Below are positions 5,910-47,468 of a stretch of DNA of 64,000 nucleotides, one piece after another. A model generated the notes under the pieces. That model was not told the DNA's origin and did no database searches. It saw nothing but the letters and a program-made list of their open reading frames with translations. Position 1 is the first letter of the stretch; every line of letters starts with the position of its first letter. Source of the stretch: a virus. Taxonomy: Duplodnaviria > Caudoviricetes. The translations under genes and the position numbers were made by a program. Location: IMG/VR virus record IMGVR_UViG_3300024259_001623; one strand, 5' to 3'.

Positions 5910-6286
5910 GACAAAATATCTATTTCCTCAACATCAACGGAAAATCTATCAGCAATTGCTTCAGAAATGTTTTTTCTATGACACTTATTATAATCTTTAC
6001 ATGAACAAAACAAAATTATATTTTTATCCATTATAGATCCCAGTTGCTCTAATCCAGAATTTATATTATAGATTTTTATATCCTTACTCTTATAATTTAC
6101 ATTACCAAGTTCTTTTATATGTATATATCTTTCTCCAAAAATACTAGATAAATAATCTTTATTCCAAAAAACTCTCATTTTAGAATATGGTTGATATCTT
6201 ATATCGACAACTACAGCATCACTACTCTCAGAAAATGTTTTTAGATCAGAGAGAGTTATATTCATATATCCAACAGAATATATCAT
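5906..6286 (-). CDS. DUF488 family protein
   Basis: IYSVGY...VVVDIRYQPYS...ELGN...LFCSCKDYNKCHR. Confidence 0.75.
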   Translation of the reverse strand: MIYSVGYMNITLSDLKTFSESSDAVVVDIRYQPYSKMRVFWNKDYLSSIFGERYIHIKELGNVNYKSKDIKIYNINSGLEQLGSIMDKNIILFCSCKDYNKCHRKNISEAIADRFSVDVEEIDILS

Positions 6287-7923
6287 TTTTTATCTTCCTG
6301 AGACAATACTTTTAAGATATTTTCACAAATACTCTCATAGTTGAAATATTTATTATATACTATTTTAATTTTGTCTTGCATTCTTTGTATATCTTCTTTG
6401 CTATATTTTTTAATCACATTCTCTAAATTACCTATATCTTTCAAATTCAACGACACAATAATGTCATTCCAATTTATCTCATCTTTATATGGCAACCATT
6501 CTTTATCAGTCCACAGATACACAGGAATAGATCCCATACTTAAAGCCTCATACATACGAAAAGAAGTTCTACCATGTCCTCTAGGGCATAATGAGAAAAT
6601 AGATCTAGACATAATATCTTCCCAACTATCCCCTATATGATATGAAGCTTTGCTGTTTTTTACCTTATTGAGTATATCCCTTTTTTCTCCAATCTCATCC
6701 CTACTAGCGAATGATACCAAAATATCTTTATTTGGATTATTAGAAAATTGTCTATCTCCTTTTAACAAAGGAATTGGGATATTCCCCTTACCGCCAGCCG
6801 CAAAAGTAAGCAAATTACTAGGAACATTATCTCTTATGCCGCTATCCAACTGGACTACGGTAAAATATTTGTTCTCAGGATTTAGTCTATTTAAAACAGA
6901 CTGTCTCTTTCGCTTGATCCTTCTGCTTCCACCATACTTGACAAATAAATCAGTCCAAAATACTGGAACATAAATTCTATCAGTTTTAGATTCGTCTTTA
7001 TGAGATCGCCAATATTTATAGAAATAATCCTCGATCCAGGGGCCTTTATGGCCAGAATATTCAAACGGGACTTTTTGCCTCAAGATTTCCCGAGTATTGA
7101 GAATCTTATTCGTATTGATGATTTCTTCATCTGAAAACCAATGTCCAAAATCAACCATTTTCGCTAATTTTTTCGCATATCCCAAAGTATAATTGTAATG
7201 TACTATATAACAACTATTTTTGATTTGCTCATGTCTTGAATACCAAAATTTCCCATTAGGGAATAATTCTACTGGTAGGCATGTCCATGCAAGACCTTCT
7301 TTATTGTTCCATATTCTGACATTAACCAATTCTTGATCACATATGAAATCATGAATGTCTTTTTTATCCATATCAAAAAGATCTAAGCTTTTTTCGGTTG
7401 GTTTTACAAAAAAGAATCCTGAACATAACGTATAAGGGAATCGAAACTCATTTATTTTTCTAGCCTTTTTCCTTTTGGAGAATTCTTTCTGTATGATTAT
7501 GTCGTTTTCTTTTATATACTCCTTTAGATAAGAGATAGGATCTATATTGAAAACTATATCAGAATCAGAAAATAATACATGATACCCCTTTTTAAGTAAA
7601 CTACGAACGATCTCTAATTTTTGATAAACTAAACCAGACCAACCTTCCCTTCTAAATTTTATAAAGTCTTCGTCAGCTTTGAATCTTTTACTTTTCCACC
7701 TGACACAATTGATATTCAATTCTTTTAGCTTTGTATAGGATCTATCATCAGTGCAGTAAACACATGTTATAGATTCTAAGTTCACTCGTCTAATAGACTC
7801 GAACCAATTAATAGTAAAATCTAAATACCCACTATTGCATACAGTGATTATTTTCACTTTATCAATAGGTTCATTAACTTTAACTTTCGTTTTTTCTTTA
7901 CTTTTTATTTTTATTTCTTTCAT
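6283..7923 (-). CDS. Two-domain glycosyltransferase: nucleotide-diphospho-sugar transferase (GT77-like) plus exostosin (GT47-like)
   Basis: N-terminal LFSDSDIVF, CSGFFF, DQELVN, FPNG, VHYNY; C-terminal SIFSLCPRGHGRTSFRMYEALSMGSIPV. Confidence 0.8.
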   Translation of the reverse strand: MKEIKIKSKEKTKVKVNEPIDKVKIITVCNSGYLDFTINWFESIRRVNLESITCVYCTDDRSYTKLKELNINCVRWKSKRFKADEDFIKFRREGWSGLVYQKLEIVRSLLKKGYHVLFSDSDIVFNIDPISYLKEYIKENDIIIQKEFSKRKKARKINEFRFPYTLCSGFFFVKPTEKSLDLFDMDKKDIHDFICDQELVNVRIWNNKEGLAWTCLPVELFPNGKFWYSRHEQIKNSCYIVHYNYTLGYAKKLAKMVDFGHWFSDEEIINTNKILNTREILRQKVPFEYSGHKGPWIEDYFYKYWRSHKDESKTDRIYVPVFWTDLFVKYGGSRRIKRKRQSVLNRLNPENKYFTVVQLDSGIRDNVPSNLLTFAAGGKGNIPIPLLKGDRQFSNNPNKDILVSFASRDEIGEKRDILNKVKNSKASYHIGDSWEDIMSRSIFSLCPRGHGRTSFRMYEALSMGSIPVYLWTDKEWLPYKDEINWNDIIVSLNLKDIGNLENVIKKYSKEDIQRMQDKIKIVYNKYFNYESICENILKVLSQEDKK

Positions 7924-15906: not shown

Positions 15907-16984
15907 ATGAATTGGTACAAAATAATCAAAATATCTCAGATATGGAATATAGATGAAGATTCTCATTTCCATAAACTTGTATATTCTCTATACGAGATGG
16001 AATATAAACTCCATATGTTGAAAAACCCATAACATAAGAGGAATGGAAGGATCATCCTCTTTTTCACCTAGGCATATAAATATAATAGAAAACGTAGAAG
16101 AATCATTACAAAAAATAATTTCTAAAATAAAACCTGTTCTTACGACCGTTTTTAGTACTTGGCTTAGAGGTCATGCCTTAACTGATCCAGAAATATGGGC
16201 AGAGAGAAGAGTAGAAGAAGCGGCTCAGTATAACGAATCATCAAGAGAAAAAATATCCGCAGCATTAGTAGAATATAAAGACTATTTGCATAATAGACAA
16301 CAATGGCTACAATATGGTCAAAAAGTGGATTGGCCTTCAATATTGCGAGAACTATTCAACTCTGCTGGAGATTTAAATTCCATTCCATCATTACAAGAAA
16401 TAAAAAACAGATATCAAGATGATTGGAGAGAAAGCTTAGAAGTGGAATTAGAAGATAGTGGACTAGAAGATTTCAACGATCAACAAGGAACTGATTTTGA
16501 GACAGAAGAAGCAGCTATGGAATATGTAAATAATTATGAAGTAGACGATTATATGTTTTTTGATTTATATTCAAACGAAGATTCATTAATAGGCGAATTA
16601 GAAATGTTCGGGAATGTAGATAATTTTACAAAAGAAATATATCAAAATTTCGTTTTCCCTCAGTGGTACAGATATTGGAGAGCAAAAGGAATAGATGAAA
16701 CAAGAAAAAATGTTGAAGCATCTTATAAAATGATGTTAGAAGCCTCATCTATAAAAGAAAATATAACCGCTATCAATGTAGCAATTAATACCTATCATCA
16801 GAGCGGAAGTATGATGGACAAACTAACCGAATATGGTGCAGTCAGCGAGGGTGGAGATTTTGAAGATGATCTTGAATCTGAATTAGCATATACAGAAATT
16901 ATGTCTTTGTTATCAAATCTCAGTAAAGGCAAATACACAGAAGAATGGAACAAAGAACTAAAAGATATTGGTCTTAATATATAA
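15907..16984 (+). pseudogene. MNWYK-leader gene split by a one-base frameshift (or an assembly indel)
   Basis: ATG 15907 gives MNWYKIIKISQ...MLKNP*, with TAA at 16030. The next frame is open from 16022 into the 313-aa ORF 16043..16984. Removing one A from TTG-AAAAA-CCC fuses the two. Confidence 0.6.
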
Positions 16985-27098: not shown

Positions 27099-27719
27099 TT
27101 ACTCCTGTTCCATTTTATAAGATTCATCTAATATCTTATTAGCATTATAACTTGATCTATACCAGCCATTTGGCATATCAGATAAAATATTTTTTATATA
27201 TTTATCATGAGTATATACCCATTCTTTTATATCGTGAGAAGAGACTTTAGACAATTTCGCTCTATCTACTCCTGTTATATTTGTAGCATTATCTTCAGCC
27301 TCTTTTTTTATTTCGTCCCATTCGTCTTTATCTTCTATCATTGCTCCCCAATGAAGCAAAAAATTATCTTCTGATATAGCCCAATGATCTATATTGTTTA
27401 TTCCAATAAAATCTTTTGTAAATTCTATCGCATTAGGATCATATCCCTCTTCTTCTAAACTTAAAGACTTCAAATTAAATAACGAAGGATTATAGTCTGT
27501 TATAGATAATAAATCCTCAGAATGTAAATTATTTATTGCAATTATATCAATATCCCTTAATCTGAATGAAGGATTATTCAAATTTTTAGATAATGAGCCG
27601 CATACATATACATTTGTAACGCCATTTATTTTAGATACTTTTGCATAAATATCTTTCAGGTAAGGTTTAACATCCCTTACCATAGGCATCGACTTTTTGT
27701 ACCAAGAAGTATTACTCAT
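27099..27719 (-). CDS. Pol-beta superfamily nucleotidyltransferase-like protein with SWYKK leader
   Basis: VYVCGSLSK...RDIDII (GS...DxD motif); starts MSNTSWYKKS. Confidence 0.6.
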   Translation of the reverse strand: MSNTSWYKKSMPMVRDVKPYLKDIYAKVSKINGVTNVYVCGSLSKNLNNPSFRLRDIDIIAINNLHSEDLLSITDYNPSLFNLKSLSLEEEGYDPNAIEFTKDFIGINNIDHWAISEDNFLLHWGAMIEDKDEWDEIKKEAEDNATNITGVDRAKLSKVSSHDIKEWVYTHDKYIKNILSDMPNGWYRSSYNANKILDESYKMEQE

Positions 27720-27792: not shown

Positions 27793-27799
27793 ATTACAT

Positions 27800-27870
27800 C
27801 GCAGGTAAGTGAACTGGTGTCACGTTGGCCTCATAAGCCAAAAAGTTTGGTTCGATTCCTTAACCTGCTA
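27800..27870 (+). tRNA. tRNA-CAT (Met-type), degenerate T-stem
   Basis: GCAGGT/ACCTGC acceptor with a C1:T72 mismatch, TTGGC-CTCATAA-GCCAA anticodon arm, TTCGATT loop; T-stem has two T:T mismatches. Confidence 0.7.
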
Positions 27871-27898
27871 TTATTATATCGTCTTTAATGTGATATAA

Positions 27899-27970
27899 CC
27901 TCGGGTCATCTAGCGGCTAGGATACAGCACTGTCTATGCTGGTACCAGAGTTCGATTCTCTGTCCGGGGG
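27899..27970 (+). tRNA. tRNA-Asp(GTC)
   Basis: CCTCGGG/TCCGGGG acceptor, CAGCA-CTGTCTA-TGCTG, CAGAG-TTCGATT-CTCTG; no CCA. Confidence 0.88.
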
Positions 27971-27977
27971 TTTATAA

Positions 27978-28053
27978 CGGGATGTAGCTCAGTTTGGCTT
28001 AGAGTGCTGCGTTTGGGACGCAGATGTCGCAGGTTCGAGTCCTGTCATCCCGA
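27978..28053 (+). tRNA. tRNA-Pro(TGG)
   Basis: CGGGATG/CATCCCG, GCTCAGTTTGGCTTAGAGT, CTGCG-TTTGGGA-CGCAG, GCAGG-TTCGAGT-CCTGT; no CCA. Confidence 0.95.
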
Positions 28054-28077
28054 TTTAGAAGTAATAAAAGGATCATA

Positions 28078-28533
28078 ATGGAAGAAGAAACAAAAGAAGT
28101 ATTAAGAATTATAGATCATAAAGAAAGAGTTGCAAATTATATTGTCCATATCGCCCATGAATTACTAAATAGATCAGTAAATCATGATAGCACTAAACTT
28201 CAAAAAGAAAATATAGGTCCAAGTCTTGAAGGTACTAAGCTTCTCCACGGCGTAGAATATGGATCTGAACAGTATAAAGAAACACTAAAAAAAATCAAAC
28301 CAAATATAGATAATCATTATGCTCATAATTCACATCATCCTGAGCATTATCCTAATGGCATAAACGATATGTCTATTATAGATATTATAGAAATGTTATG
28401 TGATTGGAAAGCTGCTACGGCTAGACACCCAAATGGGAATATGCCAGAATCTTTTGAAATCAATCAAAAACGTTTTAATATATCTCCTCAGTTAATAAAA
28501 ATATTTAAAAATACTTTAAAATACATAGAATAA
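28078..28533 (+). CDS. DUF5662-like HD-type protein
   Basis: HDSTK...HYAHNSHHPEHY...DMSIIDIIEMLCDWKAA; start ATG 28078 after AAGGA. Confidence 0.7.
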   Translation: MEEETKEVLRIIDHKERVANYIVHIAHELLNRSVNHDSTKLQKENIGPSLEGTKLLHGVEYGSEQYKETLKKIKPNIDNHYAHNSHHPEHYPNGINDMSIIDIIEMLCDWKAATARHPNGNMPESFEINQKRFNISPQLIKIFKNTLKYIE

Positions 28534-28582
28534 AGTGAAAAGATCACAGCATAAGATGTAAAAAACAATTAAGGAGAAAAAG

Positions 28583-29467
28583 ATGAGAATTATACATATC
28601 GAAGAAGATAATCTGCCGATGGCTTGGGAAAAAGCAGTACTAAGAACCTGGAACGAAGGAGATGAATTCTCTACTCAATACGATAAGCCAGGTGATCCCA
28701 AAAGTAAAGATGTTTTTGCGGTTATTCATATTAAAAACCCTCTTAGTAATCCTAGAATTCATAGAGCTTTTCCTGGCGGCTTAGATGATCTAGAGAAATA
28801 TAGATCAGAAGTTCTTCATGGAGTTCACGATCATTGGGTCAATCCATCAGAAGGAAAATGGGAATACACATATCATGAAAGACTTTTTGAATATGATATT
28901 GTGGAAAAGAAAGAAGATATTGAATATGGCGAATTTTCAGGTACTTATAGTGCTGTCGCAAAAAAAATTAACCAAATTGATGAGTGTATCAGAATGTTAA
29001 AAGAATGTGGGCACACAAGGCGGGCACAAGCTGTAACATGGAAGTGTTGGGAAGATTTGAATATATCTGACCCCTCATGTTTGCAAAGACTTTGGTTTAG
29101 AGTCCAAGATGGAAAATTGAATATGGTTATCCATATTAGAAGCAACGATGCTTTTAAGGCATCATTTATGAATATGTATGCGTTCACAGAATTGCAAGCG
29201 ATGGTCGCAGAAGCAGTAGGAGTAGAAGTAGGAGAGTACATCCATGTAGCAGATTCGTTCCATATTTACGGTTCTTACTTTGAAGAATTCGAAGGATTCT
29301 TAAAGACTGTAGAGCAACGGGAACCAGAAGATCGAGTATATACAAAAGAGTTTGCCAAAGATTTCTTTATTGATGGATGTAATGTTCTGTTGGGAGAAGA
29401 AGATATGCCAGCAGATAAAAGAAAACTAGTAGAAGAAAGGAAAGAATATTTAAATTCTTTAGAGTAA
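28583..29467 (+). CDS. thyA: Thymidylate synthase (ThyA family)
   Basis: YTYHERL, TRRAQAVTW, DPSCLQ (catalytic Cys), HIRSND, FMN (Asn associated with dUMP specificity), DSFHIY. Confidence 0.88.
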   Translation: MRIIHIEEDNLPMAWEKAVLRTWNEGDEFSTQYDKPGDPKSKDVFAVIHIKNPLSNPRIHRAFPGGLDDLEKYRSEVLHGVHDHWVNPSEGKWEYTYHERLFEYDIVEKKEDIEYGEFSGTYSAVAKKINQIDECIRMLKECGHTRRAQAVTWKCWEDLNISDPSCLQRLWFRVQDGKLNMVIHIRSNDAFKASFMNMYAFTELQAMVAEAVGVEVGEYIHVADSFHIYGSYFEEFEGFLKTVEQREPEDRVYTKEFAKDFFIDGCNVLLGEEDMPADKRKLVEERKEYLNSLE

Positions 29468-37606: not shown

Positions 37607-37963
37607 TTATAGACATGTTGAGAGATTGGCGACTAGCCCCAATAATTTATTATTGATATGATGGATATCACTTGCATCTAAAGAGTTAACAAAATTTATT
37701 GAATGTTGAATTATTTCTTTATCGCAGCCTGTGCTTTTGATATTGCCATCTCTTAATTTATATGTATACACTTTTAAAACATTTGCTAATGAATGCATTT
37801 GATTCATTACTTTTAATACTTTTGGATAATCATTATTTGTATTTGCATCACCATACGCATCTGTCAATTCCATAATCCGCTTGGCTGTTGATATTATCCA
37901 CTTTTCTGCTGAGGGGATATTAGCATCCTGTGCCGTTTTATACCATGATATTATTTTTCTCAA
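37607..37963 (-). CDS. Hypothetical protein with SWYKTAQ leader
   Basis: MRKIISWYKTAQ start. Confidence 0.7.
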   Translation of the reverse strand: MRKIISWYKTAQDANIPSAEKWIISTAKRIMELTDAYGDANTNNDYPKVLKVMNQMHSLANVLKVYTYKLRDGNIKSTGCDKEIIQHSINFVNSLDASDIHHINNKLLGLVANLSTCL

Positions 37964-38004
37964 ATTTATTTTTCCAATAGTGAGAATGCGTTATCTCTTT
38001 TTAT

Positions 38005-38349
38005 TTAATCGTTATATTCAAAAGTTTCGCCAGCACCAGCACGACCTAACAGGTCAACTAATTTCTCGGACAGGCCGGGATATTCCATGATCTCATTAGT
38101 TATATCTAGCCTAGCTCCATCAGAGGCTCTTAACCAAATTATATTATCTATCTCATAATTGGCAGTTTCAGTAGGATTCTCCCAAGTATCTTTGAAACCA
38201 GGATTGAAAGTTCCATTGACCTCTACTTCGATATAATCTTCATGAGTCATTTCTTCAAACATAAAATCATTAGCGTTGATGTTTAATGTCTCAGAAAAAG
38301 TTTGACCATAAGATAATTTGCTAAAAGATGCAGTCTTTATTTTTTTCAT
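38005..38349 (-). CDS. Acidic hypothetical protein
   Basis: MKKIKTAS start (leader-like KxA). Confidence 0.7.
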   Translation of the reverse strand: MKKIKTASFSKLSYGQTFSETLNINANDFMFEEMTHEDYIEVEVNGTFNPGFKDTWENPTETANYEIDNIIWLRASDGARLDITNEIMEYPGLSEKLVDLLGRAGAGETFEYND

Positions 38350-38361
38350 TACAAGCTCCTA

Positions 38362-38982
38362 TTAATTTCTTATATATAAGTAAACCGCATCATGTATTCC
38401 ATCCCATTTAGGTATATCAATACGTTCTACTTGCGACCATTCATTCTCAAGAGTGCAATGAAGGTCGTCATCTCCAGTGCATCCCCACCCTCCTTCTCCA
38501 ACATAAACTAGCTTATTTCCTTTAAAATTCTTTATAGCTTCATTCGCCATTGAATCAGCATATGGAGGCCAAACTGTCATCAAAACTCCATAACCACCAT
38601 ATTTCTCTAAAGCTTTTAAAGCATCTAAACTCTCTACATGAGTAAAAGACTTAGAAGAAGGATTAAATTTTTCTCCATAATAATCTGAATGTGCATCAGT
38701 AGCGGCAATATCTGCTCCTTCATCCTGTAGCAACTTGGCCCATAAACCATAACCAGCACCAATCTCTAATATTTTTTCGCCGGCAATAAAATCATTTATT
38801 TTTGATATGGCTTCTCTATTGGGAACAGACCAACCATAATCTTTTATATATTTATCTCTTCTATACCAATCCATCAAAGATTTATGCTTTTTATCTTGTA
38901 ATTCGTCAAGATAACCTTCACCGCCAGGCCCATAATGCTCCAAATCCTCATATAGCCCCATTGATGTTTTGTACCAATTCAT
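38362..38982 (-). CDS. Class I SAM-dependent methyltransferase with MNWYK leader
   Basis: WSVPN...ILEIGAGYGLWAKLL...ATD...WPPY...YVGEG..GCTG. Confidence 0.8.
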   Translation of the reverse strand: MNWYKTSMGLYEDLEHYGPGGEGYLDELQDKKHKSLMDWYRRDKYIKDYGWSVPNREAISKINDFIAGEKILEIGAGYGLWAKLLQDEGADIAATDAHSDYYGEKFNPSSKSFTHVESLDALKALEKYGGYGVLMTVWPPYADSMANEAIKNFKGNKLVYVGEGGWGCTGDDDLHCTLENEWSQVERIDIPKWDGIHDAVYLYIRN

Positions 38983-39356
38983 TAATTATACTCAAATATT
39001 CTAGGATTTCCAAATGCCCTATCTAACTCTTTTATAACCCTCTTTTTAGCAAAATCCATTCTGCTGATCGGGCCATCATAAACTATCGCAGGAAAATATA
39101 CCACACTGGCTGTATGCCTTTTAGCTTCATATCTGCCTCTAGCAAACATTTCATTCTTGTCTGGCCATAAGTCCAAATGAGTCAAAGTTTTACCTTCTTC
39201 ATTATATAAGTCTTTTATATCTAAACTAAAATCTTTATACATAACCCATATCTTATCGCCAGGAGCATCCTTATGTCCTACACTTAAATAGAAAGGATTC
39301 TCATATCTAGAATCATCAACAGGCAGGGCTATTTTTATTTGTTTATACCAGTTCAT
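38982..39356 (-). CDS. MNWYK-leader paralog family protein
   Basis: MNWYKQIKIALP...YLSVGH...W...H...ARGRY...FGNPRI. Confidence 0.85.
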   Translation of the reverse strand: MNWYKQIKIALPVDDSRYENPFYLSVGHKDAPGDKIWVMYKDFSLDIKDLYNEEGKTLTHLDLWPDKNEMFARGRYEAKRHTASVVYFPAIVYDGPISRMDFAKKRVIKELDRAFGNPRIFEYN

Positions 39357-39739
39357 TATCTATACTCAATTATTGTAGGATTATTAAATTGTTTATCCAA
39401 AACAGATATAATTTTTTCTCTCATTTTTTCTCTTCTAGGAGGAAATCGAACCATACTATATTTTTGTTCATAAACTAAACTTATTCTATGATTAAAATCT
39501 TCATATCTTCCTCTCGCTAACATATCAGACCGATCTGGCCATAAATCTTCATGAGTGAGTACAATACCATCTTCATTATATAAATCATAAACATCTAGAT
39601 AATAATCACTAAATAATGCCCATATCTGGTCCAAAGGTTTGTCCTGATGTCCTACACTTAAATACGAAGGGCGACGATGACCTCGTTCGTATCTTGTATC
39701 GACAGGCAATGCTATTTTTATTTTTTTATACCAGTTCAT
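39356..39739 (-). CDS. MNWYK-leader paralog family protein
   Basis: MNWYKKIKIALP...YLSVGH...LARGRY...FNNPTI; closest to its neighbour 38982..39356. Confidence 0.85.
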   Translation of the reverse strand: MNWYKKIKIALPVDTRYERGHRRPSYLSVGHQDKPLDQIWALFSDYYLDVYDLYNEDGIVLTHEDLWPDRSDMLARGRYEDFNHRISLVYEQKYSMVRFPPRREKMREKIISVLDKQFNNPTIIEYR

Positions 39740-40437
39740 TCTGCTTCCCTCAAATATCTAGCAGGAATGTCATTATAAAATATTACTGTACCATGACTTA
39801 ATCCATCCGAACTGTCCACTTCATAATAAAAATCCTCTAAACCAATCTTATGAGCTAATGTCTCTATCAATTCGGCCTCTTCTAAAGGCCCTTCTTTGCC
39901 CACAGTTGGCATGTAACCATCTCTTTTCATCTGTCCGACGTTAATCTCAATCACCTTATCATAATGGTTCCTGGGGGTTCCTGGGTCATCAGAAGTAAAC
40001 ACAGCAGACCCAGTTCCTCTGTTAGAAATCCCTCTAGTCTCATCTCTAGATTCAAGACCATTTCTTATTATATCATCAAACCTCTCTTCGCCAGTTCCAT
40101 GATATAACATAAATCCATCAGAAACGTCATCCCAAAATTCTTTATTAAAATCTCTTTCGTCTACATAACGATAAGCATTTCCGCTGTTCGCTATATTCTG
40201 GATCCAGTCTACAGGCTCTTGAACTTCATAATATCCACCTAATTCAATTATCACATGAGTACCATTAATAATGGCAGATATTATTCTATCACCATCGAAA
40301 TCAATGATCTCGAAGTCTTTAGTTAATCTCTGTATAAGATTTATAACTTCTTCATCGCTATTACTATCTTCAATATAAGATTCGTAATCTGCGATTAAGT
40401 CTGCTTGCTCAATTTGTGCTTGCTTATACCAGTTCAT
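39736..40437 (-). CDS. ADP-ribosyltransferase-fold (Tpt1/PARP-like HxT) protein with MNWYK leader
   Basis: MLYHGT...IIRNGLES...SAVFTSDD...VIEIN...IPARYL. Confidence 0.6.
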   Translation of the reverse strand: MNWYKQAQIEQADLIADYESYIEDSNSDEEVINLIQRLTKDFEIIDFDGDRIISAIINGTHVIIELGGYYEVQEPVDWIQNIANSGNAYRYVDERDFNKEFWDDVSDGFMLYHGTGEERFDDIIRNGLESRDETRGISNRGTGSAVFTSDDPGTPRNHYDKVIEINVGQMKRDGYMPTVGKEGPLEEAELIETLAHKIGLEDFYYEVDSSDGLSHGTVIFYNDIPARYLREAE

Positions 40438-41243
40438 ATTATATACGGATCTATTTTATCAATTATTCTTTTAAGTTGAGTTCCCCAACCTTTACGGTTG
40501 AAGTCAGTTATTTTATTTCCAATATCTTTTGCACTCCAAGGTAATCTATAATTATATCGTTTACCATTGATGTATAAAGTCATCTCTCCGTAACTGTTGG
40601 CTCCATCAACAATAACAGTAAGAGATTTTTTCTTTTCGGGCACTATTTTTTCTTCAGTCTGTTTTACATTAGGAACTGGTTTATCAAAATCGTATTTAAC
40701 AGGCTCGGCAAATCCGAATTGTCCTTGAGAGGCCCATCTTTCGGCTTTTTGTCCGATAGCAAAACCTCTTATCTTCATCGGATTGGCTTGTTCTATAATG
40801 TGAAATGGAACATTCTCATACCATTTATTATTACTCATCACATATATATTAAACATGTCTCTTTCTGCTTCTTCATTAAAGGCATCATATAAACCATTTG
40901 CTATATTTCTTAAATCTTGAGAGGTTAAAGTATTTGTTTCTACATTATTGCCTTCTAGGCGTTTCCATCCCCACTGAACCATAGCATATTCCCTAAGATC
41001 CGCTTCCCCTAAAATGAGTTTGATATCTTCTTCAGTTACTCCTCTTTCTTTGAGTTCTTCTTCGCTCATTAAAATATAATCAACTTCATTTGGATCAATG
41101 TCATATTTAGCCATAACCTGTTCAGCGACGTAAGCCTCATGATTGTAATCGCTTACGTCGCCATCAGCATATAATGCATTACCAGAATCATCTATCCAAT
41201 ATTCTCCAGAAACGGCTAATTTTATTTGTTTATACCAATTCAT
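40434..41243 (-). CDS. MNWYK-leader hypothetical protein (distinct domain)
   Basis: MNWYKQIKLA, then GEYWIDDSG...NHEAY...WGWKRL. Confidence 0.8.
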   Translation of the reverse strand: MNWYKQIKLAVSGEYWIDDSGNALYADGDVSDYNHEAYVAEQVMAKYDIDPNEVDYILMSEEELKERGVTEEDIKLILGEADLREYAMVQWGWKRLEGNNVETNTLTSQDLRNIANGLYDAFNEEAERDMFNIYVMSNNKWYENVPFHIIEQANPMKIRGFAIGQKAERWASQGQFGFAEPVKYDFDKPVPNVKQTEEKIVPEKKKSLTVIVDGANSYGEMTLYINGKRYNYRLPWSAKDIGNKITDFNRKGWGTQLKRIIDKIDPYII

Positions 41244-41680
41244 TAATCATCCTCGTATATAACAGGATTCCCAAAAGTATCATCTAATATCTGATATATT
41301 TTTTTATTTAAATATTCTTGTCTTTTAGGGTTTTTATCATATGACATATTTGTTAAAGAAACGGCATGTTTTTCTTTATCATATCTTCCTTTTGCCATCG
41401 CGTTATACCCGCTATGAGAATTGAGTCTAACATTACCAAACCTATCTATTGTTAAAGCTGGAAGAACTTTTATAGAAAAATCATAATAAATATACCATAT
41501 TTGATCTTTGTCTATATTTTCTAAAATTTGTTCTTGTATATTTTTTGGCAGAGAAGAAAGTTTTTTGTTTCTGTAATTTTTAGCATCAAAAAAACTACTA
41601 TGTCCTACATCAAAATATCCTACATCAGTAGGAGTATCCATTACAGGTAAAGCAATTTTTATTTGTCTATACCAATTCAT
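41243..41680 (-). CDS. MNWYK-leader paralog family protein
   Basis: MNWYRQIKIALP...YFDVGH...MAKGRY...FGNPVIY. Confidence 0.85.
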   Translation of the reverse strand: MNWYRQIKIALPVMDTPTDVGYFDVGHSSFFDAKNYRNKKLSSLPKNIQEQILENIDKDQIWYIYYDFSIKVLPALTIDRFGNVRLNSHSGYNAMAKGRYDKEKHAVSLTNMSYDKNPKRQEYLNKKIYQILDDTFGNPVIYEDD

Positions 41681-41682
41681 TA

Positions 41683-42132
41683 TTAAAATCCGTATATAGG
41701 AGCATTTTTAAATATATGATCTAATATTCTATAAATCCTTTTTTTAGAATATTCTTGTCTCTTAGGATTGTCAGATGATGGGAAATATCCTACAAATGAA
41801 ACTACATTTTTATTTTTATCATATCTACCCTGAGCTAAAACATCTTTTCCATTTATCGAGTCCCGATGCGTATTTATCATAATAAAGCCATTATCAGCTA
41901 TTTCCATTGCAGGGACTAAAAGAAAATTAAAATCTTTTAAGATATACCATAAAGCTTCTTTATGTTCAAAATCCCGTATGATTTTCTGCTCTTCTTCAGG
42001 ATATTCATTTATATTCGTATTATTATATTTTCTTGCAGAAAAGTTTACATTATGCCCAACGTCGAAATAAGTCATCTTACCAGGGGCTTCTGTAATAGGA
42101 ACAGCTAATTTTATTTGTTTATACCAATTCAT
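41683..42132 (-). CDS. MNWYK-leader paralog family protein
   Basis: MNWYKQIKLAVP...YFDVGH...LAQGRY...FKNAPIY. Confidence 0.85.
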   Translation of the reverse strand: MNWYKQIKLAVPITEAPGKMTYFDVGHNVNFSARKYNNTNINEYPEEEQKIIRDFEHKEALWYILKDFNFLLVPAMEIADNGFIMINTHRDSINGKDVLAQGRYDKNKNVVSFVGYFPSSDNPKRQEYSKKRIYRILDHIFKNAPIYGF

Positions 42133-42503
42133 TATCTGAATACCACTATATCAGGATTATCATAATATTTATCTAACATTTGAGAAGCTCGTTTAATTAT
42201 ATATTCTACTTGATGAGTCTTAGCATCATAAGAAATTTGTAAACTAGCTTTCTTGTTTCCGGATTTATCTATTACGAATCTGCCCGCAGCCAAATGACCT
42301 TGTAATTTGCCTTGAAAACTTCTACCATGTATTGCTTCCCTTCCACCAGGAGCGGTTAAAAAATTCCAATCTTTATCAATTAACCATAATTCTTCTTTTT
42401 GGGACCTGTTGAGATCCCAATCGTGACCAATATCTGTGTATATTAAATCTTGATCACGTTTCATAACAGGTAAAGCTACTTTTATTGTTTTATACCAATT
42501 CAT
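42132..42503 (-). CDS. MNWYK-leader paralog family protein
   Basis: MNWYKTIKVALP...YTDIGH...EELWLI...AAGRF...YDNPDI. Confidence 0.85.
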   Translation of the reverse strand: MNWYKTIKVALPVMKRDQDLIYTDIGHDWDLNRSQKEELWLIDKDWNFLTAPGGREAIHGRSFQGKLQGHLAAGRFVIDKSGNKKASLQISYDAKTHQVEYIIKRASQMLDKYYDNPDIVVFR

Positions 42504-42884
42504 TTAAAACTCATATATTGTGGGATTGCCATAATGTTGATCTAATATTTTAACAACTTTATTTTTTAATGCCCCTTGTTTTGCAATTTCTGAACTACCT
42601 GGGGCATTAATTGTTAAACTAACTTTTTTTTCTCCATTAGGTGTTACTTCATATCTGCCTTTTGCTAGATAAGCATTTGCGACTGTAGCAGAAAACATAG
42701 TATAATGTAAACGATTTTTGTAAGTAGGAACTCCAGTATGCAATTTCCAATGTCTATCTATCATCCATAATTCTTCTTCAATATCCCTGCTCTTATCAAA
42801 ATTATGTCCGACACTGGTATAATGTGATCCAACAGGAGCGTCCATAATAGGTAAAGCTACTTTTATTGTTTTATACCAATTCAT
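42504..42884 (-). CDS. MNWYK-leader paralog family protein
   Basis: MNWYKTIKVALP...YTSVGH...EELWMI...LAKGRY...YGNPTIY. Confidence 0.85.
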   Translation of the reverse strand: MNWYKTIKVALPIMDAPVGSHYTSVGHNFDKSRDIEEELWMIDRHWKLHTGVPTYKNRLHYTMFSATVANAYLAKGRYEVTPNGEKKVSLTINAPGSSEIAKQGALKNKVVKILDQHYGNPTIYEF

Positions 42885-43402
42885 TTCTTAATATCACATT
42901 CTGTCCTAGGTAAAAATAAATCTGTTAAACTAAACAGTACATTTTCGTCCCGTTTCATTTCTTTTATATTTTTTTCCGCATATTCTTTTAAAGAATCCCA
43001 ACATTTTCTCTCATCAATTTTTTTTGTCTCAGTTTCAGAATTATCTGTAGGAGAATAACCTCTTTCAAATTTCTTTAAATTAGAATTTCCCTGTTTCAAT
43101 GTAGGAATAAAAATAAATTTGTCATTTTTATATCTATCTTCTGCTATTTGACAACGAAAATACAATACAGGATTTTGCCAATCACCACCAGCTTCAAATG
43201 CTTCCGCTAAAATACTATAATTTTTGTCAAGATTATTTTTTGCGTCTAATTTTATTCTTTTTATATTACCTTTGGAAGTGTCATTTTCCAAATCAAAATA
43301 TATACCACTCTGCTCTTTTGCCTCATGGATCAACCTTTTCCATAAAACTCTTAATTCATTTTTATAATCAAATTCGTTTTGAGCTACTTTATACCAACTC
43401 AT
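42881..43402 (-). CDS. MSWYKVAQ-leader hypothetical protein (distinct domain)
   Basis: 173 aa; not alignable to the paralog domain. Confidence 0.75.
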   Translation of the reverse strand: MSWYKVAQNEFDYKNELRVLWKRLIHEAKEQSGIYFDLENDTSKGNIKRIKLDAKNNLDKNYSILAEAFEAGGDWQNPVLYFRCQIAEDRYKNDKFIFIPTLKQGNSNLKKFERGYSPTDNSETETKKIDERKCWDSLKEYAEKNIKEMKRDENVLFSLTDLFLPRTECDIKK

Positions 43403-43860
43403 GATTTTTGTACTCCAACAGTTATATGGAATTTATGCCCTTTACCATTGTAACTAGCTGGCAATCCATATCCCTTTCTTATATCCTTCAATTCAGGAGC
43501 CTCAATGGTCAAAAACCAAACTCTTTTCATATCATCCCAACCAGCAGGGTTAGTACTATATAATCCAGTTACTTTAAAACAAATCTCTTTGCCAACTTCT
43601 TTTAATTTTCCAGCCAATTCTTTTTCTTCTGCTTCTTCTGAAGATATAAACGAAACATGCGCTCCAATTCCATCTGCTCCAAAATAAGGAGGCTTAGAAG
43701 CTTCAGGAATCATTGGATAAAACCCCTCAACGATTTTGTCATTTACTTTTATGTAAGAAAAACCATCATCCTGCTGCTTTATCTCTCCTCGTAAGTCCGT
43801 TTCCTTTAATATGTTAGAAGCGACCTTAATTGAAAAGTTTTTGTTATACCAATTATTCAT
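43399..43860 (-). CDS. 2H phosphoesterase superfamily protein (Acb1/T4 gp57B-like) with NWY leader
   Basis: Two HxS/T motifs, GAHVSF and FHITV, about 80 aa apart. Confidence 0.75.
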   Translation of the reverse strand: MNNWYNKNFSIKVASNILKETDLRGEIKQQDDGFSYIKVNDKIVEGFYPMIPEASKPPYFGADGIGAHVSFISSEEAEEKELAGKLKEVGKEICFKVTGLYSTNPAGWDDMKRVWFLTIEAPELKDIRKGYGLPASYNGKGHKFHITVGVQKS

Positions 43861-44649
43861 TTAATTCCACCTGTATATATCCGGATTCCCGTAATAGTTA
43901 TCTAGAAAGCTTTCTACTCTTTTCGTCATATGTTCTAATCTTCTAGGATTTTCTCCTAGAGTATAATCCATTATTAAGCTTGCCTTTTTTTCTCCATCAC
44001 CAAACTCGTCAAATCTTCCTTTTGCTATTGCATCAAATACTTTATCACCAAATATCGAATTATGAGTGTTGCCACCCTTTCTAGGAATAGCTAACATTTC
44101 CCAATTTTTAGTTATTAACCATAATTCAGATTTGACTGGAGATTCTCCTCTTTGATTATAACTATGTTCGTGACCTATATCCAAATAGTCAAGACCATGA
44201 ATGTCTTTCTCCATTACAGGCAACGCAGTCTTTATTTCTTTATTAGCATATCTATAAATATTTGGATTCCCATACTTCTCATCTAAAATCTTTTCGATTC
44301 TGTTCATGAAATATTCTTCTCTGCCTGGATGATGAGCTTGTACTCCATAATCTAATAGAACACTTACATATTTATCTCCATCAGAAGATTCATCATATCT
44401 TCCCCTTGCTATGCCATGCAAAAAAACATCTGCTTGAAATTCAGATACATGAGTATTACTATCTGTTACAGGAACAGAAATAAATTCCCATTTATCATTG
44501 ATATACCATATTTCAGCGTATACAATTTTTCTTCTGTTTAATACACTGTTGTAGTTAGACGGCATCCTATGTCCAATATTTGTATAATGAACAGGAGGAT
44601 CTTTCTCCGTTATAGGTAACGCTATTTTTATTTCTTTATACCAATTCAT
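43861..44649 (-). CDS. MNWYK-leader paralog family protein with two fused domain copies
   Basis: The second unit begins KEIKTALPV...YLDIGH...IAKGRF...YGNPDIY. Confidence 0.85.
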   Translation of the reverse strand: MNWYKEIKIALPITEKDPPVHYTNIGHRMPSNYNSVLNRRKIVYAEIWYINDKWEFISVPVTDSNTHVSEFQADVFLHGIARGRYDESSDGDKYVSVLLDYGVQAHHPGREEYFMNRIEKILDEKYGNPNIYRYANKEIKTALPVMEKDIHGLDYLDIGHEHSYNQRGESPVKSELWLITKNWEMLAIPRKGGNTHNSIFGDKVFDAIAKGRFDEFGDGEKKASLIMDYTLGENPRRLEHMTKRVESFLDNYYGNPDIYRWN

Positions 44650-45116
44650 TAATTAAATACCGATATCTTAGGATTATTAAAATGTTTATCTACAGATCTA
44701 AGCATCATTTTTTCAACATGATTTCTTCTATTAATGGAATATCCTCTTAATGCAGAAGTATATACGAAAGAAACTATATTGTTATCTCCTTCATATCTAC
44801 CTTTGGCTAAAATAGATTGATCTAGAAGCCCCCAGACATCCCAATGAGTATATCTTTTGATAATACCTATATCATTAACACCTATCGCTGGATTCTCAAT
44901 TATCTCATAATTTTTTTGCATTATCCATATAGTTTCTTTATTTTTATCTATTTTTTTCTTGACTGATTTTTGAGCTTCTGGCTCTAGTTTATGAAAAATC
45001 ATACCTTCAACATCTCCAATTTCAAAATATCCTTCATGACCATAATCCATATAATGACTTGATGGAATAGTCTTATCAACTGGAAGAGCTAATTTTATTT
45101 GTTTATACCAATTCAT
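44649..45116 (-). CDS. MNWYK-leader paralog family protein
   Basis: MNWYKQIKLALP...YMDYGH...LAKGRY...FNNPKI. Confidence 0.85.
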   Translation of the reverse strand: MNWYKQIKLALPVDKTIPSSHYMDYGHEGYFEIGDVEGMIFHKLEPEAQKSVKKKIDKNKETIWIMQKNYEIIENPAIGVNDIGIIKRYTHWDVWGLLDQSILAKGRYEGDNNIVSFVYTSALRGYSINRRNHVEKMMLRSVDKHFNNPKISVFN

Positions 45117-45530
45117 TTAAAACTCATATATTGCTGGGTTATTGAATTCTCTATCTAATATATTAGAAACTTGTTTTTTAATATATTCCATCCTTCTAGG
45201 GTTTGTTGTATCTGGATCTACATTAATTGCTACGCTAGTTTTTCCTGAACCATCTCTGTGTTTTATATATCTTCCTGATGCTATAGAATCTTTTGATCTA
45301 TAACTAAAATCTAAATCAAAGGCGTAGTCATGAATCGTTCCGATGTTCATGTCAGTTACGGGGATAGTCTTAATATCAAAATTATAATCTATTGTCCACA
45401 AAATCTCTTGAACAACTTTATCAAATCTAAAATGTTCCATCTTGTCATAATGACCTATATCTGTATAGTCCATCTCTCTTGGAACATTAACTACAGGTAA
45501 TGCTAATTTTATAACTCTATACCAATTCAT
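45117..45530 (-). CDS. MNWYK-leader paralog family protein
   Basis: MNWYRVIKLALP...YTDIGH...IASGRY...FNNPAIY. Confidence 0.85.
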   Translation of the reverse strand: MNWYRVIKLALPVVNVPREMDYTDIGHYDKMEHFRFDKVVQEILWTIDYNFDIKTIPVTDMNIGTIHDYAFDLDFSYRSKDSIASGRYIKHRDGSGKTSVAINVDPDTTNPRRMEYIKKQVSNILDREFNNPAIYEF

Positions 45531-45914
45531 TTAAAACTCATATATAACAGGATTATCAAATTGAATATCTAATATTTTATGTACTTTTTCTTTAATCTTT
45601 TCTAATCTTCTAGGATGTAAATCACCTTGATATGTATTTATAATAAGACTAGTTTTCTTTTTTCCAGCTAAATCTAATATAAATCTACCAGAAGCAATTG
45701 AATCATAATACATTTTGCCAAAAAAATCAAAATGAGCATCTCTCTGCGTTTCCGGAGTTATAGGATAAGATTGGAAATTCCAATTTTCGTCTACTATCCA
45801 TATGATTTCTTGTTGATTAAATTTTTTATCAGTATGCCCTATGTCTGAATATTGCATATAACCAGGCGTATCAACAACAGGCAATGCTAATTTTATTTCT
45901 TTATACCAATTCAT
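45531..45914 (-). CDS. MNWYK-leader paralog family protein
   Basis: MNWYKEIKLALP...YSDIGH...IASGRF...FDNPVIY. Confidence 0.85.
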   Translation of the reverse strand: MNWYKEIKLALPVVDTPGYMQYSDIGHTDKKFNQQEIIWIVDENWNFQSYPITPETQRDAHFDFFGKMYYDSIASGRFILDLAGKKKTSLIINTYQGDLHPRRLEKIKEKVHKILDIQFDNPVIYEF

Positions 45915-46285
45915 TATTCATAATCATATATTGCAGGGTTATCAAATGTCTGATCCAATATTTTCGCAACTCTTTGTTTAATAAATTCTAATCGTTGTGG
46001 AGATGTTTCTCGCAATATAAAATGGGACCAATAAACGCTTACTACTTTTTCTCCATTTTCTTTTTGCATAAATCTACCATAAGCCATTCCGTTTTCTAGC
46101 TCATCTTCTGTAAAAATATTAACATGATTAAGGGCTTCTGTATCCGTTTTTATATTCCAATTTTTATCTATTAACCATAATGTTACATTATTTTTATTCA
46201 GACCATGACCTATATTAACATAATGTTGCGGTTTGTTTCGCTCCGTTATAGGCAATGCGATTTTTATAACTCTATACCAGTTCAT
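45914..46285 (-). CDS. MNWYK-leader paralog family protein
   Basis: MNWYRVIKIALP...YVNIGH...MAYGRF...FDNPAIY. Confidence 0.85.
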   Translation of the reverse strand: MNWYRVIKIALPITERNKPQHYVNIGHGLNKNNVTLWLIDKNWNIKTDTEALNHVNIFTEDELENGMAYGRFMQKENGEKVVSVYWSHFILRETSPQRLEFIKQRVAKILDQTFDNPAIYDYE

Positions 46286-46379: not shown

Positions 46380-47468
46380 TTATACTAATTCATTTATCGC
46401 TTTTTTTACATCTATTAATCCATATCCAGTCTTCTCGTCTTTACCAGCTTTGTCTAAATCAATACTAGCCCACTTCAAATGATCCTTGATCTGAGCAACA
46501 GTATCTACAGGAGTCTTACCACCAATCTTTCTATGCTTCGCTAACATCAATGCAACCACACCAGCTACCCAGGGAGTTGCCATAGATGTACCACTATATG
46601 CAGCATAACTATCTTTAGGAACAGTACTTAAAATGTTAACACCAGGTGCCATAAAATCTAAATTCTCGCCTGTTTGACTAAAACCAGCACGTAAATTGTT
46701 TTTATCTAATGCTCCAATAGCAATAGTCTTTTTGTAATTACCAGGATAATCCAATACGCCCTTATCCCCAGAATTACCAGCAGCACATATAATAGGAACA
46801 TTTCTAGCATATGCCTTATCTACCATTTTACGCATACCAGGATGATCATAAGTCCCGCCCAATGACATACTAATAATATCACAACCTAAACTCAACGCCT
46901 TCTCAATACCACCAGAAACCCAATCATAAGAACCATAACCCTGATCATTTAAAACCTTTATGACCTGAACTCTTGCTCTAGGAGCTACACCTACAATACC
47001 CTCAGCATTATTATTGGCAGTTATAATACCAGTTACATGAGAACCATGACCATGAGCGTCAGATACGTTACTACGAGCAGCCTTAAAACGACGAACAAAG
47101 TAGGTTACTTTTTTTTGCGCACTTTTTAAATTCTTCCTCATTCCGTTTCGTTTCTTAGTATTTCTCGTCCTCTTCAACCTCTTTTGATATAAACGAACTT
47201 GCTTTTTCCAGTATCTGGCCCAACTTAAATAACTGTATGCTTTACGAGCTTGAGTCATGCTGAATTTAAATGCAATTGATCCCTGTAGATCGACATGATC
47301 ATATTGACAGCCAGTATCCAATACAGCTATCTTAATCCCCTCACCCTGAGTCTCATCCCATATCGAAGGTATGTTCTGACGAATCATCTCAGCATTAACA
47401 ACCTGATCAAATGAACTGTTAACACCAGCACTCTTTAAATATGTATCTAATAACGAAACTTTATCCAT
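46380..47468 (-). CDS. Subtilisin-like serine protease (S8) with a basic insertion
   Basis: AVLDTG (Asp), HGHGSHVTG (His), AAGN (oxyanion Asn), GTSMATP (Ser); no signal peptide. Confidence 0.95.
   Translation of the reverse strand: MDKVSLLDTYLKSAGVNSSFDQVVNAEMIRQNIPSIWDETQGEGIKIAVLDTGCQYDHVDLQGSIAFKFSMTQARKAYSYLSWARYWKKQVRLYQKRLKRTRNTKKRNGMRKNLKSAQKKVTYFVRRFKAARSNVSDAHGHGSHVTGIITANNNAEGIVGVAPRARVQVIKVLNDQGYGSYDWVSGGIEKALSLGCDIISMSLGGTYDHPGMRKMVDKAYARNVPIICAAGNSGDKGVLDYPGNYKKTIAIGALDKNNLRAGFSQTGENLDFMAPGVNILSTVPKDSYAAYSGTSMATPWVAGVVALMLAKHRKIGGKTPVDTVAQIKDHLKWASIDLDKAGKDEKTGYGLIDVKKAINELV

Follow-up and report, generated by a model that had tools for sequence, protein, structure and literature searches.

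A shared MNWYK leader peptide on proteins of many families in a clade of uncultured huge phages: a candidate address tag

The leader array in the window

A 64,000-nucleotide stretch of DNA from a virus of the Caudoviricetes (Duplodnaviria), IMG/VR record IMGVR_UViG_3300024259_001623, carries a tandem array of 16 minus-strand genes whose products share a short N-terminal leader, and this leader, here called MNWYK, is the subject of the present analysis. The whole stretch, hereafter the window, comes from an uncultured, marine, huge phage; the array locus also occurs in several seawater metagenome assemblies, in copies 99.99–100% identical to that in the window, and only in DNA runs from seawater. 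From 38362 to 46285 all 16 open reading frames (ORFs) open with M-[NS]-W-Y-[KR], with a variant, MNNWYNK, at 43399..43860. A first-pass annotation made from the letters alone had reported this common start, which is borne out, as are the three further leaders that it had placed at 37607, 27719 and 15907 (ISWYKTAQ after a TTG start, MSNTSWYKK and MNWYKIIKISQ, respectively). A six-frame scan of the window gave 19 matches to [NS]WY[KRN], namely the 16 array genes, 37607..37963, 27099..27719 and the plus-strand ORF at 15907. Every one of them lies no more than 14 codons after the preceding stop and has at least 40 open codons downstream, whereas shuffling the window in 2-kb blocks leads to a chance expectation of 1.44 matches in total and 0.055 at an N-terminus. 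Because 19 of 19 matches are N-terminal against 0.055 expected, the motif is real, bound to the N-terminus and far above chance.

The array genes run head to tail, their stop and start codons overlapping or abutting (TAATG, ATGA), in a block that begins with an S8 subtilase gene on the same strand (Table 1). Leader genes cluster in translationally coupled tandem arrays. At the minus-strand junctions between 38982 and 46285, the C-terminal N-P-x-I-Y-E-F/Y tail of the most frequent cargo family, IGH-GRY, puts GAG or GAGG 8–13 nucleotides ahead of the next ATG, so that this C-terminus may double as the ribosome-binding site of the next gene and thereby couple their translation. A promoter and terminator scan of the array gave no sites above the level of shuffled sequence, and the isoelectric points of the tagged proteins have no common bias.

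The cargo behind the 16 leaders had been described as unrelated from gene to gene. Five differing bodies agree with that description, but the diversity was overstated, given that 11 of the 16 genes (12 domains) form one paralog family with a domain of ~110 residues, "IGH...GRY...NPxIY", and 26–41% mutual identity. The array in full comprises six families: IGH-GRY, a methyltransferase (MTase)-like body, an ART-like body, 2H-SAK and two bodies without an assigned domain (40434..41243 and 42881..43402). Members of IGH-GRY have in common MNWYKxIKxALPV, Y-x-D-I-G-H, a W, an H, A-x-G-R-Y, an S, L-D and the C-terminal N-P-x-I-Y. The conserved positions are H27, H54, G70-R71, S83, D111 and N116, with both histidines invariant and the serine and aspartate nearly so; the two histidines, the G-R pair, the serine and the aspartate suggest an active or binding site. 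In the tandem fusion at 43861..44649, all that is left of the second, internal leader is AN--KEIKTALPV, a decayed form without W-Y.

A profile search of 1.8 billion representatives returned 222 IGH-GRY clusters, 131 of them at E <=1e-10. About two thirds of 150 representatives among the matches listed open with MNW[YF][KRN], and many of the others either open with MNWY-x or come from truncated gene calls. Some members are multi-copy (five repeats in P0004) or fused to other bodies (P0033, P0101 and P0121), and the family has no match in Pfam or PHROG. An AlphaFold (AF2) model of 45531..45914, made from a 71-sequence alignment, reached a predicted local distance difference test (pLDDT) score of 87 and a predicted template modelling (pTM) score of 0.80. 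In this model residues 1–20 score ~50–72, residues 1–3 below 50 and the domain above 86, and in IGH-GRY, the one family modelled, the leader and linker are thus predicted to be a flexible extension outside the fold. Foldseek against the PDB gave template modelling (TM) scores below 0.4, mostly to gelsolin/ADF-like chains, and PDB Z scores stayed below 5, none of them convincing; a VIA-wide search gave Z <=4.7 and the Atlas TM <0.5, and the top AFDB match is an unnamed 121-amino-acid (aa) relative. With its confident model and conserved polar residues, the IGH-GRY domain is a well-defined new family suited to biochemical work.

The earlier domain calls fared unevenly. The 2H phosphoesterase is solid (PF22547), and the MTase-like body at 38362..38982 is backed by phrog_19090, with homologues in other phages annotated as S-adenosylmethionine (SAM)-MTases; the ART call is weak and the nucleotidyltransferase call comes through look-alikes only. 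For the ART-like protein (39736..40437), a profile built from five leader-bearing relatives matched only ART-superfamily chains in the PDB (Tpt1/PARP16/diphtheria-toxin), with a best E of 0.016, and the assignment stays weak. The product of 27099..27719 is a probable Pol-beta-type nucleotidyltransferase, judging from the models, and has orthologs with the same leader at three other loci (L021, L035 and L063). Homologues of 40434..41243 bear the leader in L031 and L059, and P0121 joins the body to an IGH-GRY domain. The plus-strand leader gene at 15907-16984 consists of a 41-codon ORF followed by 16043..16984 in a different frame, the break lying at a GAAAAACCCATAA run; its intact homologue is a 360-aa leader protein (L003:1930-3009) with 32% identity over the body and 48% over the first 40 residues, and the split may reflect a pseudogene, a programmed shift or an error of assembly. 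In 38362-38982 (-) a second, internal M-D-W-Y-R-R stands near residue ~37, ~36 residues past the MNWYK start.

Table 1 Coordinates of leader genes and adjoining features in the window.
Position	Strand	Feature	Match
46380..47468	-	S8 subtilase, 362 aa, without signal peptide; first gene of the co-oriented block	PF00082 1.8e-57
45914..46285	-	Leader gene 1, IGH-GRY family (MNWYRVIKIALP)	
45531..45914	-	Leader gene 2, IGH-GRY family; protein modelled, fold from ~residue 20 to 127	
45117..45530	-	Leader gene 3, IGH-GRY family	
44649..45116	-	Leader gene 4, IGH-GRY family with insert	
43861..44649	-	Leader gene 5, tandem fusion of two IGH-GRY domains	
43399..43860	-	Leader gene 6, MNNWYNK...IKVAS, 2H phosphoesterase of polyvalent-protein type	PF22547 2H-SAK 6.4e-11, residues 36-152; phrog_12204
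42881..43402	-	Leader gene 7, MSWYKVAQ, body without assigned domain; leader-bearing ortholog in complete genome G001 (L004:10752-11810)	
42504..42884	-	Leader gene 8, IGH-GRY family	
42132..42503	-	Leader gene 9, IGH-GRY family	
41683..42132	-	Leader gene 10, IGH-GRY family with insert	
41243..41680	-	Leader gene 11, IGH-GRY family with insert	
40434..41243	-	Leader gene 12, MNWYKQIKLAV, 269-aa body with conserved SGEYWIDDSG..YADGD motif	
39736..40437	-	Leader gene 13, MNWYKQAQ, acidic, C-terminal half ART-like (H-Y-type, LYHGT)	PARP 1.6e-3
39356..39739	-	Leader gene 14, IGH-GRY family	
38982..39356	-	Leader gene 15, IGH-GRY family	
38362..38982	-	Leader gene 16, MNWYKTSM, class I SAM-MTase-like body	phrog_19090 1.6e-34; Methyltransf_23 1e-4 (weak in Pfam)
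38005..38349	-	Acidic 114-aa protein starting MKKIKTAS, an 'IK-x-A' half-leader without N-W-Y, directly after the array	
37607..37963	-	118-aa protein with offset leader (MRKIISWYKTAQ; ISWYKTAQ), TTG start	
27099..27719	-	Leader variant MSNTSWYKK, candidate Pol-beta-type nucleotidyltransferase	Language-model and structure look-alikes only
15907..16984	+	Leader gene MNWYKIIKISQ, frameshift-split near 16024-16030	

Other parts of the window hold features of their own. Between 50000 and 64000 the G+C content (GC) rises from ~0.31 to ~0.45 and long ORFs vanish; this part contains two tRNAs (Leu-GAG and Met) and many called mini-genes of 40–110 aa. At 6283-7923 (-), within a run of glycosyltransferase and methyltransferase genes (1–15 kb), a 546-aa protein combines Nucleotid_trans (8.6e-29) and Exostosin GT47 (2.9e-12), which are mostly eukaryotic glycosyltransferase families. 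At 28024-29467 (+), after tRNA-Met/Asp/Pro at 27799-28053, a DUF5662 protein (4.8e-29), whose called start overlaps the tRNA-Pro call, is followed by a thymidylate-synthase-family protein (2.6e-19) that is possibly a pyrimidine hydroxymethylase or modification enzyme. Neighbouring proteins of 1637, 706, 607 and 428 aa gave no match in PHROGs or Pfam.

The leader peptide across the clade

Searches with two degenerate DNA patterns for the leader yielded 40 stretches on ~25 IMG/VR contigs, including complete genomes of 460,978, 488,051, 498,568 and 547,943 bp as well as a record of 476,248 bp. Across 394 kb of related loci, 115 of the 125 matches to [NS]WY[KR] lie at ORF N-termini, and MNWY starts number 14, 12, 8, 7 and 1 in the complete relatives against 0–2 for a control pattern. 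Tandem leader arrays recur, with 8 genes in L032, 14 in L057, 5 in L045 and 6–7 in two JGI metagenome contigs. Once the leader had been stripped, 120 leader ORFs fell into 76 blastp families, 51 of them singletons, which excludes at clade level that the leader is confined to one paralog family; the search in huge-phage datasets, with its table of cargo, puts the tag on ~76 families instead. MNWYK-x-[A/I]-[Q/K](-x-A) is a putative address peptide, short (8–11 residues), flexible and N-terminal, that one clade of huge phages of ~0.45–0.55 Mb has specifically and that is grafted on dozens of unrelated bodies. These results strongly support the earlier proposal that a portable peptide tag marks a modular set of anti-defence or host-takeover proteins, and they extend it to the whole huge-phage clade.

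The consensus of 40 examples is M-N-W-Y-K-x-[I/A]-[K/Q]-x-A, with W3 and Y4 invariant. It comes in two registers, MNWYK-x-A-Q and MNWYK-x-I-K-x-A, and the forms include MNWYKKAQ and MNWYKQIKLALPV; NWYK-x-AQ, NWYKWAQ and QWYK are among the variants of the tag. In some relatives the fold begins right past 8–11 residues, as in MNWYKKASYIAYHGT (ART) and MNWYKKAQNKKTLYIMRG (P-loop kinase), and the functional unit is therefore very short; the Pfam domains of leader proteins begin 12–36 residues in. Direct reading found no Sec/Tat or lipoprotein signal, since the leader has neither a hydrophobic core nor a twin arginine, and what follows MNWYK is polar or variable.

Conservation acts mainly on the peptide, because across genomes both synonymous codons are used at N2 (AAT 45, AAC 57), Y4 (TAT 87, TAC 15) and K5 (AAA 79, AAG 23) and K is also exchanged for R (AGA). 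Selection on the peptide, first proposed from synonymous changes within the leaders (AAT/AAC, TAT/TAC), is thereby confirmed and extended to AAA/AAG/AGA, and conservation at the nucleotide level is excluded. It is in this light that we consider it highly improbable that the leader is conserved as a translation-initiation or RNA-level signal, be it a start context, the target of a phage translational regulator or an element for re-initiation. Such a signal would fit the tight coupling of the array genes, with their overlapping or abutting stops and starts, and the use of AAC at codon 2 and of TAT and AAA at codons 4-5 above local codon usage. However, both synonymous codons occur at every degenerate site, K gives way to R (AGA), W and Y are retained though any AT-rich codons would serve initiation, and the motif persists inside fusion proteins and at offsets of 1–7 codons from the start.

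Prokaryotic genomes match the leader pattern no more often than chance. In 596 Gb of bacterial and archaeal sequence there were 11 matching stretches, where chance alone would give ~17 (an estimate); no more than two of the 11 are genuine leader clusters, and these lie on small low-GC contigs resembling misbinned phage DNA. The MTase-like body is the one cargo that was compared outside the clade: its homologues there (halovirus HGTV-1 and the jumbo Aeromonas phage pAEv1810) have other starts and lack the leader, whereas a homologue in another leader-clade contig opens with MNWYKLAQ, and the leader is therefore a clade-specific add-on. LR756500, a huge-phage record matched by the same body, has no leader motif in the 16.5 kb examined. 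Megablast and tblastn against 50,697 phage records gave no match for the array, an IGH-GRY member, 27099..27719 or the 1637-aa protein, and no cultured relative turned up. In the papers searched, 'MNWYK' did not occur in a biological sense, and keyword searching on huge-phage tags returned nothing relevant.

Among 83 leader proteins of the relatives, the recurrent Pfam matches are GNAT (6), AAA_33 (polynucleotide-kinase-like, 4), cREC_REC (2) and DUF5661 (2). Single matches are InPase, Tad6 (type I Thoeris inhibitor, 4.5e-35), ART-PolyVal (1.2e-17), PolyA_pol (CCA-enzyme-like), SLT, HATPase_c, HicA, MTase and a full glucose-6-phosphate dehydrogenase (G6PD), and around three quarters of the 83 are without a Pfam match. 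Going by these domain assignments, the recognisable cargo is dominated by domains typical of DNA-co-delivered, counter-defence or RNA-damage proteins (ART, GNAT, 2H, InPase, Tad6, the polynucleotide-kinase-like kinase, cREC, the CCA-enzyme-like and the MTase-like domains), and the tagged proteins are enriched in roles in counter-defence, host modification and RNA repair. The G6PD (L030:11652-12971) is complete (G6PD_N 8e-46, G6PD_C 6e-63) and has the leader form MNWYKWAQ; three genes that neighbour it carry the same W-A-Q variant of the tag.

Leaders are also found within longer proteins. L003 encodes a leader-ART-[NWYK]-GNAT fusion in which the internal leader copy is kept. At three loci (L013:7-1821, L033:2972-5692 and L050:6414-9071) a CCA-adding-enzyme-like ORF runs in frame via M(A)SNWY[KR]..K(I)ADASSG into a small C-terminal domain, and the kept Met suggests either an internal start, which would make a separate tagged protein of 108–110 aa, or a conserved internal processing site. 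Two other long ORFs (L062:6052-8811 and L053:2673-4814) end in a leader-like C-terminus, ..VNWYKKVKNAMV and ..GYNWYRKRISA directly before the stop codon, just ahead of the next leader gene, and these ends may be traces of recombination within leaders.

Recombination might even account for the leader as a whole, if it were the ancestral N-terminus of IGH-GRY, spread by illegitimate recombination in tandem arrays and without function. The predominance of IGH-GRY in the array (11 of 16 genes) would agree with such an origin, as would the MNWY start of about two thirds of the 150 family representatives among the matches listed and the near base-for-base agreement of 40434..41243 and 41683..42132 over 11 leader residues. 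Yet ~75 other families are tagged, many of which have the shorter MNWYK-x-A-Q form and lie at loci that lack any IGH-GRY gene, and the leader is kept in orthologs across genomes (27099..27719 and 42881..43402). A functionless scar would moreover decay, as the internal copy in 43861..44649 did, and we give this origin very little credence.

Where the tagged proteins may be sent

By analogy with phage proteins that are packaged through an N-terminal signal, our preferred reading is that MNWYK is a capsid-targeting tag that loads proteins into the phage head, a tentative choice to which we assign a probability of roughly 0.4. The tag would dock its cargo to a conserved component of the assembling prohead, and the cargo would then be enclosed and later ejected with the DNA. 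N-W-Y-K would be the docking determinant and the K-x-A that follows a possible trimming site for a maturation protease. A weak structural lead points in the same direction, given that the best BFVD matches of the IGH-GRY fold are segments of 1276- and 1415-aa proteins of uncultured phages, at E of about 4e-3 (best 3.6e-3).

Several observations weigh against loading into the head. No capsid, portal, scaffold, prohead protease or terminase gene was located in the window, and the neighbourhood of the array is not structural, with glycosyltransferases, a thymidylate-synthase-like gene, a GHMP kinase and a DNA methylase. In five complete relatives (G001 and G005-G008), Pfam searches for the head genes T4 gp21 (PF03420), T4 gp23 (PF07068), HK97 protease (PF04586) and Terminase_6N (PF03237) were all silent, a weak negative in that PF03420 and PF07068 were silent in control genomes too. 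A full G6PD is unlikely to be an injected effector. Between phages whose cargo orthologs share only 30–40% identity, N-W-Y-K barely varies, and a very conserved receptor would therefore be needed, whereas scaffolds usually evolve fast. The leader could be cleaved at K-x-A, to go by the pattern of residues only. Lastly, codon 2 is AAC in 57 cases where local usage predicts ~30, which suggests some added selection on initiation.

The reading can be put more broadly, with MNWYK as the address label of a non-T4 trafficking route in which one very conserved receptor would sort several dozen enzymes via an 8-residue peptide, into the head or another phage-built structure. This broader claim strikes us as doubtful.

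A destination apart from the capsid has to be weighed at the same point. The tag could then direct proteins to a compartment or assembly made by the phage, be recognised by a dedicated chaperone or by an activating protease, or be read by a highly conserved host machine as a signal for timed degradation. The evidence that the leader is portable, peptide-level and unstructured fits this explanation and capsid targeting equally, and the array lies away from recognisable head genes. That N-W-Y-K hardly changes among very divergent phages, whose GC spans 0.28 to at least 0.45, suggests that its receptor is highly conserved, and G6PD and RNA-repair cargo are plausible for cytoplasmic proteins. N-W-Y-K-x presumably resembles the polar-hydrophobic-hydrophobic-basic-hydrophobic class of N-terminal ClpX recognition, and we assume that trimming before the W or Y of the leader would expose an N-degron. 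However, the tag can lie as far as 7 residues from the N-terminus, contrary to a strict N-terminal-residue rule, and no candidate receptor was identified. The cargo also overlaps strongly with the domains of predicted injected polyvalent proteins (PMC5512222). Overall we consider a non-capsid destination unlikely, if worth keeping in view.

The S8 subtilase (46380..47468) raises a further prospect, that the leader is a pro-peptide which this enzyme cuts, maturing the proteins independently of the capsid. Its gene heads the same co-oriented block, a homologue stands directly upstream of a leader gene in L062, and S8 was found in four of the five complete relatives; I-K-x-A, with a hydrophobic P4 and a small P1, would presumably suit a subtilase. 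But the linkage is not conserved, as in G001, G005, G006 and G007 the S8 gene lies beside glycosyltransferase-like genes and not leader genes, the enzyme of L062 has a signal peptide and is so probably secreted, and G008 has a leader gene without an S8 match. A complex prediction of S8 with the first leader protein scored 0.00 with the partner poorly folded, a result that speaks neither for binding nor against it. We regard this pro-peptide role as very improbable.

If the tag does mark co-sorted proteins, whose most plausible fate is to be packed into the head and injected, the early "first-strike" arsenal of an uncultured 0.5-Mb phage clade could be listed with a single short regular expression. 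Because most of the tagged proteins lack a Pfam match, such a list offers many candidates for new functions in anti-defence, RNA repair and host takeover, and it already holds a Tad6-type Thoeris inhibitor and ART/GNAT pairs. Capsid-targeting-like tags would then be no peculiarity of T4 but a general strategy that huge phages can scale up, and an 8-residue peptide could load cargo into phage particles as a minimal programmable tag. MNWYK would also serve as a rule by which the proteins that uncultured huge phages deliver or sort could be read from sequence, and IGH-GRY, if the proteins do follow a common sorting route, would be a new abundant family of cargo or effectors.

Comparison with known systems

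The closest likeness is to the capsid-targeting sequence (CTS) of phage T4. In IPI, IPII and IPIII this peptide, MKTYQEFIAE, is removed by the prohead protease gp21; its 10 residues include positions for targeting (4 and 7) and for processing (8 and 10), and the peptide, which variable internal proteins have in common, suffices for foreign cargo (PMC9026906). MNWYK is likewise a peptide of ~10 residues at the N-terminus of otherwise unrelated proteins, some of them anti-defence, encoded by clustered genes of variable content. It may also be bipartite, with targeting early and processing later, and Tyr4 and a hydrophobic residue 7 coincide between the two. Beyond Y4 and the hydrophobic position 7, however, MNWYK has no sequence homology to the CTS and lacks the L/I-x-E site of gp21, and gp21 and gp23 were not detectable in the five complete relatives, a weak negative as noted above. 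The scale is larger too, with 7–14 or more leader genes per genome, at least 19 in the window and ~76 cargo families in the clade.

In phage P1, a signal of fewer than 30 residues at the N-terminus of the antirestriction protein DarB is enough to bring a heterologous protein into the head, and the Dar proteins have no consensus leader in common (PMC9024508). MNWYK resembles the DarB side of this system, an N-terminal signal on anti-restriction cargo of the polyvalent type, and differs from the Dar proteins as a group in being a single consensus across dozens of families. Polyvalent proteins themselves, which phages and conjugative elements encode, are predicted to be packaged and injected, to act early after DNA entry, and string their domains, with ART next to GNAT, 2H and Pol-beta nucleotidyltransferase, in one giant polypeptide (Iyer et al. 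2017, PMC5512222). Much of this repertoire recurs behind the leader, with 2H-SAK in the window and ART-PolyVal, InPase and GNAT in the relatives. In contrast to polyvalent proteins, the window genes are single-domain, except for the IGH-GRY tandem at 43861..44649, and each has a separate leader, as if the giant polypeptide had been unbundled.

Among giant phages, the phiKZ-like SPN3US has paralogous ejection proteins, which are N-terminally processed head proteins with propeptides of 20–254 residues (PMC10052503). Both it and the phage of the window have diverged paralogs in tandem, and by analogy the 12-copy IGH-GRY set may be an abundant internal-protein family like the phiKZ-like ejection or inner-body paralogs. 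Unlike MNWYK, the SPN3US propeptides are no shared consensus tag, and IGH-GRY has neither a sequence match (50,697 phage records, tblastn) nor a convincing fold match. As far as sequence comparison can tell, MNWYK would thus work like the T4 CTS yet not be a member of the T4 system, and is best described as a putative non-T4, clade-wide and large-scale N-terminal address tag.

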